Positions 9,787-53,560 of a stretch of 64,000 nucleotides of DNA are shown one piece after another. This DNA comes from Escherichia phage vB_EcoS_VAH1. A program made the translations under genes and the position numbers. The notes beneath the pieces were generated by a model. It was not told the origin of the DNA. It worked only from the letters and a program-made list of their open reading frames with translations, and made no database searches. Each line of letters starts with the position of its first letter. The stretch's first letter is position 1. Where the stretch lies: the sequence record MK373792.1; one strand, 5' to 3'.

Positions 9787-10263
9787 ATGATTACACAAGA
9801 GCGATTAAAAGAGCTGTTAGATTATAATCCTGAGACTGGAGTATTTACCTGGAAAGTATCTCGTGGTAGAGTTTCAAAAGGATCTGTAGCTGGAACAGCA
9901 GTATCAGTAGGGAATAGGTACACCCGCTGGGAGATTCGAGTTGAAGGAAAAAGATATAAGGCGCATCAGTTAGCATTTCTATACGTTCATGGTTATATTC
10001 CACCTGAGATTGATCATGAAGATAGGAATCCATTGAATAATGCAATACTTAACCTAATAGACTCTTCAAAGTCTCGTAATCAATTAAATAAGAATAAAAA
10101 CTTCGGTAAAGAAACACCAAAAGGAGTCTTTGTAAAAGCCTCTACTGGAAGATACTTCGTACAGATTCAAGGAAAGCACTACGGCTACTTTGATGACGTA
10201 GAACAGGCCAGAACTGTTGCTAATGAGGTATATGATAGGTTGTTAAATGAGAATACTGTTTAG
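9787..10263 (+). CDS. HNH homing endonuclease (MITQERLKEL family)
   Basis: N-terminus MITQERLKELLDYNPETGVFTWKVSRG; HNH motif YKAHQLAFLYVHGYIPPEIDHEDRNPLNN. Confidence 0.8.
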   Translation: MITQERLKELLDYNPETGVFTWKVSRGRVSKGSVAGTAVSVGNRYTRWEIRVEGKRYKAHQLAFLYVHGYIPPEIDHEDRNPLNNAILNLIDSSKSRNQLNKNKNFGKETPKGVFVKASTGRYFVQIQGKHYGYFDDVEQARTVANEVYDRLLNENTV

Positions 10264-42541: not shown

Positions 42542-42716
42542 TTAGCGCTATTAACCTTTTTGCCAAATTCTTTGGATTACGTACGCGTGGGTGTGCTCAC
42601 TGCCACCGGCGAAAATACTTAGTCTGCTAACCGCCACCCCCGTTACTATTACCATGCTAACTGTTTCACCCTGCAACCATTTTAATTGCAAGGTGAAACA
42701 ATTTCAACTTTAATTA

Positions 42717-43451
42717 TTACGCAACTTTTAATTTCTCAATATACTGTTGCGGGCTGCAACTATATTCTGCGCGTTCTTCTTCAGTCATACCTTCCCAACA
42801 TAATTGCAAGCGATCGGCTAGGAACTGATAATCATTATCATCCTCAAGAGATTCGTCAATAAAGGTTTCACCTATCAATGTGACACCGATTGATAGAATA
42901 TCATTAACGGCTTGCGCGTCCAGCGTTTTAAATCCGTATGATGCCGCCGCTGCCAATACTCCCTTATGATCGTCGATCATCGTGAAATCAGCGTTCGGAT
43001 ATAGCTGTTTAAATAGCTCAAAGTAATGACTTTTATATATAGCGTCCTTACTGTGGTATATTTCGCTAACCTTATCAGCTTCAAAATATTTGTGAAGCGT
43101 ATCGCGGGAAAATACACGGATATTACTATTTCCACGCCCTCGCAGTCCTTGTTTGCGCAGGTAATAATAATCTGACTTGCTCATCAGTCGAGCGGTACAA
43201 ATAACGTTTAACGTGTTGGCGTCATTCATGCACTGGCGCATATATGTAACAAGCGGCAATAGTGTATCTTGCATTATTAAATCATGTTTGCAGGCTTCAT
43301 TTTTATACTTATTTAAATCTAAATTGCCCTCGCTATCAAAGCAAGGCGCTACGCGATGGAAAGAATTGATGATTGTTCCGTCCAGATCCCAAATCATGAC
43401 GCGGGAAATATGCGGGAAATTACGGGTAATATTCGTTTTAACTTGATTCAT
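42717..43451 (-). CDS. dmp: 5'-deoxyribonucleotidase, HAD-superfamily (T5 dmp-like)
   Basis: HAD motif I IWDLDGTI; 244 aa; adjacent to the A1/A2-like genes. Confidence 0.75.
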   Translation of the reverse strand: MNQVKTNITRNFPHISRVMIWDLDGTIINSFHRVAPCFDSEGNLDLNKYKNEACKHDLIMQDTLLPLVTYMRQCMNDANTLNVICTARLMSKSDYYYLRKQGLRGRGNSNIRVFSRDTLHKYFEADKVSEIYHSKDAIYKSHYFELFKQLYPNADFTMIDDHKGVLAAAASYGFKTLDAQAVNDILSIGVTLIGETFIDESLEDDNDYQFLADRLQLCWEGMTEEERAEYSCSPQQYIEKLKVA

Positions 43452-43996: not shown

Positions 43997-45661
43997 TTAC
44001 GAGAAAAATTTACCATTTTTAAAGTCGATCAAGGTGCGTTGACCGTTTGCATAGGTAATAACATGCGTTTGTGTCCAGCTTGACGCGCCAACGTTATAGC
44101 CCATATCAAGGGAACCAGACACGCCAGCGGTATAAACGCCGCCGTAGATGCTGGCGGTGTGAGTGTGCCCCGTGTTTAATTTGCCCAATTTCTTAAACTG
44201 TTTTGGATTTCCACGGCTCCCGTTAATGCCGTTGTGACCATGTACACCGCACTCAATGCCTGCAATCTTGAAAGATTGATCAGTCGTTAGGAAAATTGCG
44301 TTAAACTCACAACCTGCAACCTTGCGCAGCGCATAATCTAGCACGTTGAAGGTGTCATCTTTTTCTGCAATAGCTCCGTAAATCGCAGCATTAAGGCGGT
44401 GATACAGTTCCGCGTTGGCTGGGTCGTCTTTAATGTTGGCGTTACGATCATCCAGCCAACGTGATAGCGCCAGATCGTGATTAGATTCAACAATGATTGT
44501 TTGACTAAAATCACGTTCCATCGATTCCAGCACGCGCCCCGTATCGATAAGATCATCCAGAACTTTATCACGTCCGGCTGCATATTGTTTTGCTAGGAAT
44601 ACACCGGACGCACGATTATGATGATTGCGCGATGTAAAATCATGCACGTCATGGATAAACTGATATTTTGGTTTAAGAATATCAAGCAAGCTATTTTCGC
44701 CAGCCCATGACGCAGCGGCGCAATCGTCATCTAATTTTTCGGCGTGTATGTCACCGTATTGTAAACCTAAAACATGCCCCGATGTTTCATAGCATCCTGC
44801 GGGAGTAGCGCAAACATTCAGATCATAAAACACGCCGCTTTCGTCCATCGTTTCAAGCTGGCGCACAAAAAACTCACCGTCTTCGTCGAACTCAACAATA
44901 AGCGCACCGAAGTTATGCAGCGCCTCGGCCTTTTGTCCTGCTTTCTGCTGGATGTAATTTTTTAGCGTCGCCGTGCCGGTTGAATACATACGGCGTACTA
45001 CTTCACCTTTTAAAGCTGGAACGCTTTCGGCGGTGATTTTAGCGTGACCAATTGCCAGACCTTCAAGATTAAGCGCGGTTGCAGTTTCAGCGAATCCAGA
45101 AAGCGGATAATCTGCGGTGGGCAAAACATTAATTTCAGCCATGAAAGCAAAGCGGCGATTGTTTAAAAACACGTTTTTATTGCAGATATATTTGTCAAAC
45201 GCGGAATCATATTTGATTCCGTCAGCACCTTCCCCATTTTGAAAACCGTTTTTATTATAAATATACTTGCTAACCAGCAAATCAGCGCCAATAAATTGGG
45301 CATATTGTTCAAGCGAGGCTAAAAAGTTTTTATGCGGGAAAGTATTATTCTGAATCGATGTAATAATAAAGCGTTTACCTTGTTTTACTTCCCAGCTTTC
45401 CACCGTGCTAGAAATAACTCCAGCGGCTTCAGGGCGGTCATCGTTTTTTATGGCTTTTGCTACTTTCGCCGCTTTTGGTTTCGCTGGTTTATTTGCTTCC
45501 AACCAGTCACAAATCGCGGTCGAGTGTTTTGTAGTATCATAGACCGCTTTTGAAATATCGTCGCAGACTTCCAGTTTAGTAGCGCGCAGACGTTTACCGT
45601 AGAAATTGAAATCAGCGGCCATTTTCAGGATAACGGTTTGTTTTTCTGCGGAAATAATCAT
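43997..45661 (-). CDS. A1: pre-early A1-like protein with calcineurin-like metallophosphoesterase motifs
   Basis: 554 aa; metallophosphoesterase-like motifs GDIH, ESNHD, GHTHT; higher GC than the surrounding genome. Confidence 0.7.
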   Translation of the reverse strand: MIISAEKQTVILKMAADFNFYGKRLRATKLEVCDDISKAVYDTTKHSTAICDWLEANKPAKPKAAKVAKAIKNDDRPEAAGVISSTVESWEVKQGKRFIITSIQNNTFPHKNFLASLEQYAQFIGADLLVSKYIYNKNGFQNGEGADGIKYDSAFDKYICNKNVFLNNRRFAFMAEINVLPTADYPLSGFAETATALNLEGLAIGHAKITAESVPALKGEVVRRMYSTGTATLKNYIQQKAGQKAEALHNFGALIVEFDEDGEFFVRQLETMDESGVFYDLNVCATPAGCYETSGHVLGLQYGDIHAEKLDDDCAAASWAGENSLLDILKPKYQFIHDVHDFTSRNHHNRASGVFLAKQYAAGRDKVLDDLIDTGRVLESMERDFSQTIIVESNHDLALSRWLDDRNANIKDDPANAELYHRLNAAIYGAIAEKDDTFNVLDYALRKVAGCEFNAIFLTTDQSFKIAGIECGVHGHNGINGSRGNPKQFKKLGKLNTGHTHTASIYGGVYTAGVSGSLDMGYNVGASSWTQTHVITYANGQRTLIDFKNGKFFS

Positions 45662-51227: not shown

Positions 51228-51422
51228 ATGAGCAATAAAATTATTGTAACCAAAACTACCACAATGGTTGACGTTTTTTATGTGCCCGATACGCTGGAAA
51301 ACCGGCAAGCGGTCGAGCGTGGCGAGTATGATAAAGTGATTTATGATCACGATGGTTATTATAAGCATTTGGTGGATTCCTACGGGGAGGAGGAAAAAAT
51401 CACGCATCAATTACCGGACTGA
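51228..51422 (+). CDS. hypothetical small protein
   Basis: 64-aa ORF with an acidic C-terminus. Confidence 0.45.
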   Translation: MSNKIIVTKTTTMVDVFYVPDTLENRQAVERGEYDKVIYDHDGYYKHLVDSYGEEEKITHQLPD

Positions 51423-51661
51423 CAACAAGCGGGGCGCAACTATCAGGGAGTGCCCCCAATTCTCAAATGAGAATGATTCTCATTTGACCGCGCCCGCGAT
51501 GGTTAGCCTGCTAATGATTAGGGTGTTACGTGTCGCCTTGTGTGATAGTTAGCGAGCTAACTAATTTTCAAGCCTCCTCCAATTTTGCCCTTGTTTTAGT
51601 ATCCCCATCAAAATAAAACGCGTTAGAATGCGATTCAGGGCGTTTTAGGCCTATATTAGAA

Positions 51662-51789
51662 TTATCCACTGTGTAGGAATACTGTATAAATATACAGTAG
51701 GATAAGCTGTGGATAAGTCTGTTGATAACGCTTCAAAATGGCTAGAATTCTGTCAAGGCAAATCGTGCTGTTGATAAGTCTGTGGATAA
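51662..51789. promoter_or_regulatory. cluster of five DnaA-box-like sites plus 16-bp palindrome (copy 2)
   Basis: TTATCCACT (51662-51670), TGTGGATAA (51708-51716, 51781-51789), TGTTGATAA (51720-51728, 51769-51777); palindrome CTGTATAAATATACAG at 51682-51697. Confidence 0.6.
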
Positions 51790-51814
51790 CTTAAATAACA
51801 GTGTTTCTCACTTC

Positions 51815-51980
51815 CATTCTTAAATGAGAATCATTATCATTCGTATTCCACTTTTTAAATGAGAATCATTTCACTTTTTAAATGAGAATCATTTCACTTT
51901 TTAAATGAGAATCATTCCCTTTCTTAAATGCGAATCATTATCATTCGCATTTCACTTTTTAAATGAGATTGATTCTCATT
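51815..51980. repeat. tandem array of about six ~21-bp repeats (consensus TCACTTTTTAAATGAGAATCATT)
   Basis: Direct reading: repeated TTAAATGAGAATCATT cores with sub-repeats CATTATCATTCGCATT. Confidence 0.75.
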
Positions 51981-51999
51981 ATCATTCGCATTCAGGCGA

Positions 52000-52017
52000 G
52001 CAGGGCAATTGCCCTGC
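52000..52017. other. perfect 18-bp palindrome GCAGGGCAATTGCCCTGC
   Basis: Perfect dyad, followed by a short T-run (GCTTTTG). Confidence 0.5.
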
Positions 52018-52022
52018 GCTTT

Positions 52023-52803
52023 TGTGCAAATCCGACATTTGCTCCAAGGGTTACGTGCTGGCGTGTATGTGCGAATCCGACAATTTTTGGTAGTGTGCAA
52101 ATCCGACCCGAAAAATTTTTATAGTGTGCGAATCCGACAATGAATTTTCCCAAAAACTCCAGCAATCACGAACTGCGTTCGAATCCTGTGGGATATGTGC
52201 AAATCCGACACGGTTTTTCTAGGATTAAGATGTGCGAATCCTACAAGATTTTTGTGACTTCGATGAGAGGGTGTGTGATTGTATAGGTTTGAGGAGAAGT
52301 TGAGAGAGCGAGAAAAATTTGGGGAGCTAGAAGGATGTGGGCGCAGGATTGGTGCGAAGCACCTGATTTGCGGGGATTTTGGGGAAGAGTTGAGATAATT
52401 TGGGGAAATTTGAGATAGGTGCAGAAAAAGTAAAATTTTATTAGCAAAATGGGGCAAAATAGCTTGACAAGTGAAAATTCTTGTGGCTCTAAAAACTCAG
52501 GCAATCATGGGCCTTCGGCCCGAAATAATGCTGCTATTTTCAGGAGAGTAAGAGTTCCTAAAAACTTAGGCGTTTGTGCAAATCCGACCATAAATTTCTA
52601 GAAATGCAGTGTGCAAATCCGACAGTAATTTCTGGAAATGTGTTTTCAAAAAATGTCTCCTAGAAATAACCGCCCTCCCTATAACCGCCCTGTATTAAAC
52701 CGCCTAGTATATGTAACGTTGGAGAGAAACTGCCCTAGAATATGTGCAAATCCGATGAATATTTTTGTGCTTATCAATTTCCTAGAATATGTGCAAATCC
52801 GAT
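52023..52803 (+). repeat. dispersed array of ten 15-bp iterons, consensus TGTGC(A/G)AATCCGACA
   Basis: Copies at 52023, 52068, 52095, 52125, 52196, 52231, 52575, 52610, 52743 and 52790, all in the same orientation. The last two lie in a duplicated ~35-bp unit; TGTGCTTATCAATTTCCTAGAA is also duplicated. Confidence 0.75.
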
Positions 52804-53176
52804 GAATATTTTTGTGTGATCTCTAGAATTTGTGCTTATCAATTTCCTAGAAACTTAGGAGTCTAGAAGAAAGTGTTGTGCCATCCTAGCAGATGAGCGG
52901 CAACCGGTGTATCATCTTGAACACAGATATTGCCTTTAAATATTATAAGGTAAATTAAAAGTAAAGTAGCCCCCATTACATGTGTGCTTACTCGTGGGGC
53001 GCGTGATTAATTACGTAAGTCCTCGACTGTCATACCCCTGTTGCTCGGTCGCAAAGAGTTAACGAAGTCTCGTGTAATAATCATCGCCCCTAGAGTTCAA
53101 AACAAGAGTTGTTTTTAATCTATGTGATTATTATAACATGTGCCGCAATGAGTTGTCAAGAAGATTTTGTTAACTT

Positions 53177-53560
53177 TTATTCCTCCTCTTCGAGATTGGT
53201 ATTGGGATCGTAAATTTTCTTGGCTCCTGTATTTAATAGGAATCGCTCTGCAAGTTGTGGGTGAATATCAAAGAACTCTGTGCATCCTTCGAATCCCTTT
53301 AAATTACAGCGGTATTTCTTAAAGTAGATATGAGCAGCGGCTTCTAGATCTCTAGGATTATGGGTTTCATAAATCCCATACACGTATAAATCGTCAAAAC
53401 CTCGATAGACTATCTTATCTAAGTTTAGTGTTTGAATCCTATTATGTGGATTCATACTGATACCGATCTTTGTTCTTTTAGGGATCTTCGTCAGATCCCT
53501 ATTTGCAAGAATATATACTTTATATAGTGACATTCTTTCTAGCCTTGAGTTTGATACCAA
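53177..53560 (-). CDS. T5orf172 (GIY-YIG-like) domain protein
   Basis: KVYILANRD...KIGIS...RIQTLNLD...YVYGIYETHNP...GCTEFFDIH matches the T5orf172 domain pattern; TTG/ATG start ambiguous. Confidence 0.6.
   Translation of the reverse strand: MVSNSRLERMSLYKVYILANRDLTKIPKRTKIGISMNPHNRIQTLNLDKIVYRGFDDLYVYGIYETHNPRDLEAAAHIYFKKYRCNLKGFEGCTEFFDIHPQLAERFLLNTGAKKIYDPNTNLEEEE

Follow-up and report, generated by a model that had tools for sequence, protein, structure and literature searches.

We examined a tract of strand-asymmetric DNA at positions 52260-52460 of a 64,000-nt stretch (hereafter the window; one strand, 5' to 3') from Escherichia phage vB_EcoS_VAH1 (sequence record MK373792.1). The tract lies in non-coding DNA (~51423 to 53176) that separates the pre-early operon, which is read rightward, from the first of the leftward early genes. 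All 609 phage records that match 51400-53200 are T5-like (Demerecviridae), and these matches to Salmonella, Escherichia and Klebsiella phages extend over the full length with 84-90% identity. Judged by these alignments, the window comes from a T5-like phage of the Tequintavirus type. A plasmid origin, prompted by the joint presence of iterons, DnaA boxes and a LexA box, was rejected, as 51400-53200 has no match among 72,556 plasmids and the region is that of T5-like phages.

In the alignment to T5, the left-end sequence of the T5 genome starts at ~42593 of the window, which contains one full copy of the ~9.9-kb direct terminal repeat with unique DNA on either side; this is the layout of a collapsed assembly or a concatemer junction. 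In genomes of this type, dmp-A1-A2 are at the opposite end of the repeat from the tract, and the gene order of the window agrees with that of T5 and HdH2. Here, an open reading frame (ORF) of dmp size (42717-43451, minus strand) is syntenic with the other end of the T5 terminal repeat, and the A1 homologue (43997-45661, minus strand) is 91-98% identical to A1 of close T5-like relatives and 32-74% identical to that of other genera. The right (inner) end of the repeat maps between 52489 and 52490 by alignment to four annotated genomes, not from reads of this phage. The tract thus forms the last 30-230 bp of the repeat, ends 30 bp short of its boundary and, in the right-hand copy, would be sub-terminal DNA of the virion. 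The sequence-only reading of this DNA had missed that the region is the T5 terminal-repeat and injection-stop region.

Composition and anatomy of the tract

The sequence-only reading had described about 200 bp of almost pure G/A, atypical for an AT-rich genome. The asymmetry is real, with a GC skew of +0.70, essentially the maximum of the base-skew scan, but the purity was overstated, as the tract is 68% purine and 25% T; likewise, it is atypical in its strand asymmetry and not in its G+C content. The base composition (A 0.318, C 0.065, G 0.363, T 0.254) compares with 0.198 C and 49% purine for the whole window. Among 63,800 overlapping 201-nt windows across the 64 kb, the purine content of the tract ranks 13 (peak 0.69 at 52262), the lowest C content (0.060) is at 52262, and the GC skew peaks at +0.72 at the same position, a value of +/-0.6 being attained nowhere else. 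The corresponding binomial tails are 9e-8 for C (P of at most 13 of 201) and 4e-8 for purines (P of at least 137). The bias is accompanied by a clustering of motifs: TTTGGGG occurs three times on the plus strand of the 64 kb, each time within the tract, which also holds three of the five plus-strand copies of TTGAGA[TG]A and the sole cluster of GGGG runs (five in 200 nt, against 70 in 64 kb).

C-free runs of 47 nt (at 52262) and 50 nt (at 52372), longer than any others in the window, form two arms of the tract with a C-containing island between them. The left arm (52262-52341, plus strand) is nearly C-free G/A/T DNA that includes the 47-nt run, a unit resembling T5 direct repeat A (DRA), TTGAGGAGAAGTTGAGAGA (52289-52307, plus strand), and AAATTTGGGGAG (plus strand) with GGGG at 52321-52324. 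The part of this arm around ~52320-52340 is the most variable among relatives and carries indels that are not multiples of three. The central island (52342-52372, plus strand) concentrates 7 of the 13 cytosines of the tract in 31 nt and can form a hairpin with an outer stem CGCA/TGCG and an inner stem GGTGC-GAA-GCACC at 52351-52363 (DNA fold of -7.3 kcal/mol, z -2.3). The inner stem is conserved in Tequintavirus and Epseptimavirus with varying loops (GAA/GGA/TTCA/TTTA), and the Klebsiella relatives have another hairpin, CGCAG-TTTG-CTGCG, in its place.

The core of the right arm (52372-52419, plus strand), which harbors the 50-nt C-free run, starts with GGGGA at 52372 and continues with a tandem 20/21-nt unit, the copies of which, TTTGGGGAAGAGTTGAGATAA (52378-52398, plus strand) and TTTGGGGAAATTTGAGATAGG (52399-52419, plus strand), correspond to copies 2 and 3 of T5 direct repeat A (DRA2 and DRA3). 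Tandem-repeat detection (TRF) returns a 10-nt period (ATTTGGGGAA, 4.5 copies, 52366-52412) as well as the 20-nt unit, of which a further copy is located 90 nt upstream. The adjoining A-tract-rich segment (52420-52463, plus strand), composed of AAAAA, AAAATTTT and AAAAT GGGG CAAAAT in ~10-bp phase with the preceding G runs, is highly conserved, including in Klebsiella T5-like phages.

Helical phasing and conservation

Fourier analysis placed the strongest 10-bp periodicity of A-tracts in the 64 kb at 52351-52481 and 52471-52671, centred on the right arm and the repeat junction, and the tract itself lies at the 99.4th-99.5th percentile for 10-bp A/T-tract periodicity. An alternation of A·T tracts and G runs in helical phase is characteristic of duplex DNA that is intrinsically curved or easily wrapped. 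An A/T-tract peak at 10.0-10.25 bp, usually shared by the G runs, recurs in nearly all Tequintavirus and Epseptimavirus sequences and in Erwinia phage KEY (P 0-0.04 against shuffles), with significant band power in the Klebsiella group as well.

Conservation in relatives, on which the sequence-only reading had made its suggestions depend, is found throughout: the tract is matched in 509 phage records and is 85-97% identical to that of close relatives. Within Tequintavirus, hardly any variation is seen in the right arm and the A-tract segment, whereas the left arm varies in its middle. The 210 nt that adjoin the junction on its left have a GC skew of +0.49 to +0.77 in a set of 30 distinct T5-like sequences (GenBank and IMG/VR), a bias that is not seen in a control set of 8 chance pattern hits in unrelated contigs. 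Using a 261-nt query (52240-52500), the Klebsiella relatives could be aligned only at 52418-52495, around the junction block, and still keep the C poverty, with G runs every 10-12 nt that make up canonical G-quadruplex (G4) motifs. Erwinia phage KEY has the layout seen here, and its copy of the junction block and hairpin is directly preceded by DNA with a skew of +0.83. In Proteus phage 1 (Novosibvirus; L046 3692-3848, MT679223 ~89190-89350), the corresponding non-coding region contains a purine tandem array free of C, built of 9.4 copies of an 18-nt unit of the AATAATAGAATGGTGGGG type (GC skew +0.94, 75% purine). In Vibrio phage BBMuffin, purine-rich GCTAGAAGGAT-type repeats lie inside the terminal repeat ~300 nt from its boundary, and a ATTTTGGGGGATTTGGGCAGAAATTTGG motif is present within ~100 nt of the boundary on the unique side. 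In all cases, the biased strand is the one running from the pre-early genes to the boundary. Composition, strand, position and phasing thus persist where the sequence has diverged, as in the Klebsiella and Erwinia relatives.

This persistence bears on whether the tract has any function of its own, or is a by-product of local repeat amplification or a spacer between the iteron blocks. The variable middle of the left arm, the indels, a poly-G expansion in one relative and the different motif sequences of different genera agree with such a neutral origin. However, strand bias, clustering of G runs, phasing and position are retained in genera with otherwise unalignable sequence, and the right arm is conserved as much as the neighbouring blocks that look functional, which makes a tract without function quite improbable.

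Relationship to the T5 injection stop signal

The tract aligns with ~9910-10110 of T5 (AY587007), between copies 6 and 7 of direct repeat D (DRD), where it spans DRA2 and DRA3, and it falls within a feature annotated as 'injection stop signal (iss)' in AY543070. The same DNA is part of Repeat Region 3 in the comparative study of Davison (bioRxiv 10.1101/866236), where DRA2 and DRA3 are catalogued among many repeats without a role and the base bias goes unmentioned. As relayed by Davison (10.1101/866236), the left-terminal-repeat region of T5 had been described earlier by Heusterspreute 1987 and Wang 2005. The genomic context, the ordered set of repeats and a repeat end between DRA3 and DRD7 are all those of the T5 iss and Repeat Region 3, and the order of elements is as in T5: palindromes, an inverted repeat of DnaA boxes, direct repeat C (DRC), nick, DRD, DRA and DRD.

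The elements that precede the tract in this order are readily located. Paired DnaA boxes form an inverted repeat at 51708-51789, followed by DRC-type repeats at 51822-51974 and by palindrome J, an intrinsic terminator-like hairpin (GCAGGGCAATTGCCCTGC, then a T run; 52000-52027, hairpin 52000-52017, plus strand) that overlaps the major nick motif of T5, CCCTGCGC, at the 7.9% nick (52012-52019, plus strand). The hairpin indicates roughly where the DNA of first-step transfer ends, ~250 nt upstream of the tract. That the tract is embedded between iteron blocks, as the sequence-only reading had it, is borne out by six repeats at 52024-52244 and four at 52576-52803, all in one orientation. The left block (plus strand) consists of six GTGC(A/G)AATCCGAC repeats of the form GTGC(A/G)AATCC(G/T)AC that correspond to DRD copies 1-6. 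The right block (plus strand), which is outside the terminal repeat, has four GTGCAAATCCGA(C/T) repeats that correspond to DRD copies 7-9 and an extra copy.

Thus, this phage and T5 share orthologous DNA, the same repeat order and the same terminal-repeat junction, and nothing essential differs, a 47-nt duplication being the source of the fourth right-hand iteron. By sequence, the tract is one already catalogued in T5 (DRA2 and DRA3 in the iss or Repeat Region 3), and the copy in the window is an ordinary orthologue. What is added here to the T5 literature that we found is descriptive: the extreme C poverty and strand bias, the 10-bp phasing and composition that outlast the sequence, and the fixed 30-bp distance to the boundary.

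Coding potential, transcription and non-B DNA

A 39-aa ORF on the plus strand (TTG start, 52279-52398) lies in the tract and is annotated as 'hypothetical protein' in some relatives. Many GenBank records carry coding sequence (CDS) calls across the tract and the junction, for example HdH2_00018 (L001 3365-3499) and Sepoy gp021 and gp022 (L007 1223-1339, 1415-1552). These annotations and an RNA fold of 52260-52530 with a z of -2.3 could speak for a gene product, either a small protein or a structured RNA or leader. However, the ORF is missing in 9 of the 30 relatives, others read the same DNA in another frame, and the indels, some of them of 1 nt, are not multiples of three, so that a protein-coding role was rejected. 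Long minus-strand ORFs also run across the tract, as is expected when the plus strand is poor in C, and are best regarded as an artefact. Since the ORFs are not conserved in frame, the CDSs for 'hypothetical proteins' across the tract in T5-like genomes are likely over-annotations, of which annotators should be wary.

The RNA alternative fares no better. Promoter prediction gave no sigma-70-like site within the tract or immediately upstream, an intrinsic plus-strand terminator (52000-52017 and its T run) precedes it, no plus-strand gene follows it, and a search of Rfam gave no match for it at E<=1. The minimum free energy structure of 52260-52530 has an ensemble frequency of 0.0007 and is unconvincing, and the arms are unstructured. 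The tract is probably not transcribed, the structured RNA leader put forward by the sequence-only reading is not supported, known RNA families were rejected, and a gene product of either kind is very improbable.

The clustering of G runs raises the possibility of non-B DNA, in which a G-quadruplex, or H-DNA or a triplex as the sequence-only reading had proposed, would act as a barrier to replication or transcription or as a structural mark. Besides the five GGGG runs, G4Hunter scores averaged over 100-200 nt peak here within the 64 kb, and at the same place the canonical G4 pattern is present in the Klebsiella relatives and nearly so in Erwinia phage KEY (loops of 7, 15 and 2 nt). In the tract itself, no G3+ motif with N1-7 or N1-12 loops could be matched, a G4 would need loops of 17 and 45 nt, and in 25-nt windows G4Hunter reaches a borderline 1.2-1.5 at 52317-52345 and 52363-52406 only, values that are exceeded elsewhere in the window. 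H-DNA needs a homopurine mirror repeat of at least ~15 bp, whereas T breaks up the purines throughout the tract and the longest unbroken purine run is 9 nt, which excludes it; the longest such run of the window (16 nt) is at 51384. There is also no promoter to open the duplex, and a non-B structure is distinctly unlikely. Telomere-like, G-quadruplex-prone T(2-4)G4 repeats offer a partial parallel. TTTGGGG and TTTTGGGG are on the strand running 5' to 3' to the chromosome end, and relatives have canonical G4 motifs, but the tract has only 3-5 units with long loops and no canonical motif, and the last 30 bp of the repeat are not G-rich.

Other known signals were also considered. As a T5 nick site, the tract offers just an inverted 7/8 copy, GCGCAGGA, at 52341, which has the wrong strand and which Epseptimavirus phages do not conserve. 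As for an iteron-type replication origin, iterons and DnaA boxes are present; the tract itself is G-rich and does not resemble an A+T-rich unwinding element, and the origins of T5 map near the centre of its genome (Davison, 10.1101/866236).

The repeat boundary

The annotated end of the terminal repeat is identical in T5, Shivani, Sepoy (where it is PhageTerm-predicted) and Klebsiella phage GZ8 (Sugarlandvirus), with the common junction ...TTGACA-N-AAATTC(C/T)TGTGG(C/A)TC / (C)TAAAAA, in which the slash marks the end; the repeat end of vB_SenS-3 is 4 nt off. In the window, the boundary block (52464-52496, plus strand), TTGACAAGTGAAAATTCTTGTGGCTC continued across the junction by TAAAAAC, spans 33 bp and is the most conserved non-coding block across genera. 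Outside the repeat, 20 nt from its boundary, lies a hairpin GGGCC-TTCG-GGCCC (52509-52521, plus strand), for which the Klebsiella lineage has a different hairpin, (A)CGGTG-ACA/GCA-CACCG(T), at the same place. Since the hairpin is kept while its sequence changes, selection for structure is indicated.

The TTGACA at 52464 was considered as part of a sigma-70 promoter and rejected, as no acceptable -10 hexamer accompanies it and the block instead spans the repeat junction. A motif AAATTCTT(G)TGG near both repeat boundaries was likewise set aside because it is absent at the left boundary of T5 and its recurrence is probably due to chance. In Salmonella phage Kenya-K18 (OQ291031, position 10020), the direct terminal repeat is annotated to end 101 nt to the left of the common junction, in the middle of the DRA repeats; this offset probably stems from a difference in annotation or method rather than biology.

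A candidate landing pad for terminus definition and packaging

Taken together, these features lead us to favour, tentatively, a reading in which the tract would be a non-coding cis element acting at the level of DNA, a bent protein-landing pad tied to the cutting of the terminal repeat and the initiation of packaging. Phased, anisotropically bendable DNA with repeated units could wrap or position a protein complex beside the repeat boundary, most likely the packaging machinery, in which case the tract would be a small-terminase-type recognition site similar to lambda cosB or SPP1 pacL. The left end of T5 is injected first. In tailed phages, the end that is injected last is packaged first, and by this last-in-first-out rule the right end of T5 is likely packaged first. 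The initiating terminase would then cut between 52489 and 52490 and packaging would proceed leftward, and the tract would lead the way into the capsid. A strand asymmetry as strong as this could also lend strand polarity to the cutting or nicking.

In lambda cosB and SPP1 pacL, the small-terminase recognition region is bent, contains repeats, and lies within ~150 bp of the cut on the packaged side. The tract shares this position and anatomy, which is why we rate a packaging landing pad best. It lies 30-230 bp from the annotated repeat end, on the side that, given left-end-first injection, would be packaged first, and its tandem unit and phasing supply the repeated units and the bend expected of a terminase recognition site of the cosB or pac type. 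Like the R3-I1-R2-R1 array and IHF bend of cosB and like pacL and pacR of SPP1, it has short repeats up to ~150 bp from the presumed cleavage site on what would be the first-packaged side, is probably bent, and is non-coding, orientation-specific and lineage-specific in sequence. It differs from them in that the phage makes long direct terminal repeats instead of cohesive ends or headful cuts and in having flanking iterons that could be the real binding sites. The concatemer junction of T7 and T3, with pacB, repeat arrays flanking a 160-bp repeat and a hairpin intermediate, offers another comparison, as it also concerns a phage with direct terminal repeats and a left end that is injected first, and as short repeated motifs and an inverted repeat are present at the repeat boundary in both systems. 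However, the repeat is 10 kb in the phage studied here, there is no sequence similarity, and T7 processing needs its own RNA polymerase to pause at the junction, whereas no promoter or pause signal is evident here. A protein landing pad was also among the suggestions of the sequence-only reading, and it is the one that has gained: we infer it from the 20-nt units, the conserved ~10-bp phasing and the fixed 30-bp distance to the boundary.

Several points weigh against a role in packaging. In the literature we found no T5 pac site, no small terminase or recognition site, and no transcript map of the region; binding of the tract by terminase or by another protein is inferred, as is right-end-first packaging. 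The direct repeat D iterons on both sides of the boundary are an equally good candidate for a terminase-binding array. In Vibrio phage BBMuffin, the iterons abut the boundary, a T/G-run motif is outside the repeat and the purine array is ~300 nt inside it; owing to this different order, adjacency of the block to the boundary does not hold for every member of the family. Database records define their repeat boundaries by mixed methods, and that of Kenya-K18 is an outlier, as noted above. Finally, the tract lies in a region that has classically been assigned to injection control.

Injection control is the rival explanation that this assignment suggests, with the tract serving either as a site for the pre-early proteins A1/A2 or a host protein when transfer restarts, or as curved or hairpin DNA that aids the stall in the tail tube or portal. 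Besides the location of the tract inside the annotated iss and Repeat Region 3 and its phased curvature, Davison (10.1101/866236) takes the conservation of Repeat Region 3 as evidence for an injection function, and papers of 2026 still call the iss mechanism poorly understood. The shear point of first-step transfer, mapped from T5, is estimated at ~51970, and the tract, which lies 250-450 nt beyond the 7.9% nick or shear point and hence past what is transferred into the cell in the first step, would follow among the earliest DNA once transfer restarts. We estimate that it is within one tail length of the stall point (tail of ~180-250 nm, 0.34 nm per bp). By the same token, the tract would be outside the cell during the pause and beyond the reach of cytoplasmic proteins, which weakens any model of cytoplasmic binding at the stall. 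Moreover, T5 ejects its whole genome into FhuA proteoliposomes in vitro, which argues against a purely DNA-intrinsic block, the candidate elements of the literature are to the left of the tract, and the fixed distance to the repeat boundary is left unexplained. On balance, injection control as the role of the tract is rather unlikely.

The polarity of the bias invites a further alternative, that of a substrate for recombination or annealing. After 5'-to-3' resection of the right end, the exposed C-poor 3' tail would load a recombinase or anneal to another copy of the repeat, seeding circularisation, concatemers or recombination-dependent replication. The strand that points 5' to 3' at the right terminus is the G-rich one, and the C-free arms as single-stranded DNA fold to 0 kcal/mol and are therefore free of secondary structure. 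A mirror bias is seen at the outer end of the repeat, where the first 80 nt (42593-42672) are C-rich on the plus strand with a skew of -0.41 (2.9th percentile), the same value as in T5. As the left end is C-rich and the right end G-rich on the plus strand, the strand running 5' to 3' to the end is G-rich at both physical ends of the chromosome. However, the bias at the left end is weak, the tract contains neither a Chi nor a near-Chi sequence, the T/G-run motif of Vibrio phage BBMuffin is outside the repeat and not at the physical end, and the ~10-bp double-helical phasing and tandem units point to recognition as a duplex, making such a substrate quite unlikely. A near-Chi GCCGGTGG does occur near the left end (42603-42610, minus strand) and is not conserved in T5.

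Returning to the packaging landing pad, the argument could be extended to a larger module in which the tract would act together with the invariant junction block and the covarying hairpin beside it. In T5-like phages, this module would be where packaging is recognised and the terminus defined, with the small terminase wrapping the DNA as at cosB and the inner edge of the 10-kb repeat being fixed in this way. The same module, one tail length past the stall, could also explain why the limit of first-step transfer nearly coincides with the repeat boundary. We regard this extension as a conjecture on the doubtful side; if true, a near-coincidence that has been unexplained since the 1960s would gain an explanation. 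T5 is a classical model phage in which both two-step injection and the generation of the 10-kb terminal repeats are mechanistically unexplained, and the tract lies where the two meet. It offers a delimited experimental target (~230 bp together with the 33-bp junction block and the hairpin) that is conserved, strand-specific and helically phased.

Other features of the region

The GTGC(A/G)AATCCGAC iteron is kept down to Vibrio T5-like phages, whose A1 is only ~33% identical, and seven copies adjoin the terminal-repeat boundary of BBMuffin (L044 1-260). T5 also carries two copies of direct repeat D within exo2, a gene at 64.9% of its genome. CTAG is enriched at 52200-52900 (11 in 700 nt), mostly as CTAGAA and often beside iterons (CCTAGAATATGTGCAAATCC), and CTAGAAG likewise underlies the purine array of the Vibrio relative; a second recognition motif may thus be present in CTAG(AA).

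To the left of the nick, TACTGTATAAATATACAGTA at 51680-51699, which is palindrome D of T5 and adjoins the two DnaA-box pairs, is one mismatch from the E. coli LexA-box palindrome and is the sole match in the 64 kb, against 0.01 expected. A CTGT-N8-ACAG palindrome is also present beside DnaA boxes in Erwinia phage KEY, Proteus phage 1 and Vibrio phage BBMuffin. The T5 literature discusses the DnaA boxes and, as far as we found, does not mention a LexA site. Seven copies of AAATGAGAATCATT, of the T5 direct repeat C type, at 51465-51478 and 51822-51974 resemble the core of a Fur box. The T5 phage group uses the iron-regulated receptors FhuA and BtuB, which makes the resemblance intriguing, though it is weak, as only one of the seven repeats (51965-51983) is within three mismatches of the 19-nt Fur consensus.

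On the unique side of the boundary, 53159-52958 (minus strand) contains a candidate conserved non-coding RNA that is not in Rfam. Its putative promoter, a perfect sigma-70 TTGACA-18-TATAAT with an upstream TG (53159 to 53130), reads leftward to the repeat boundary and is followed by a 5' leader (AUAGAUUAAAAACA...), an imperfect hairpin of ~100-130 nt, and a GGGGG stem with a U run (predicted fold of -45.2 kcal/mol, z -3.5). Its promoter was not found in T5 within 300-1100 nt of the boundary. The core is hypervariable and unalignable with MAFFT. DNA of the candidate is matched in 259 phage records. Fourteen distinct T5-like sequences have the promoter and most of these also the leader, Klebsiella relatives included, with Erwinia phage KEY having the promoter only; a long hairpin is predicted in every one of the 14 sequences although the core sequence is completely different between lineages.

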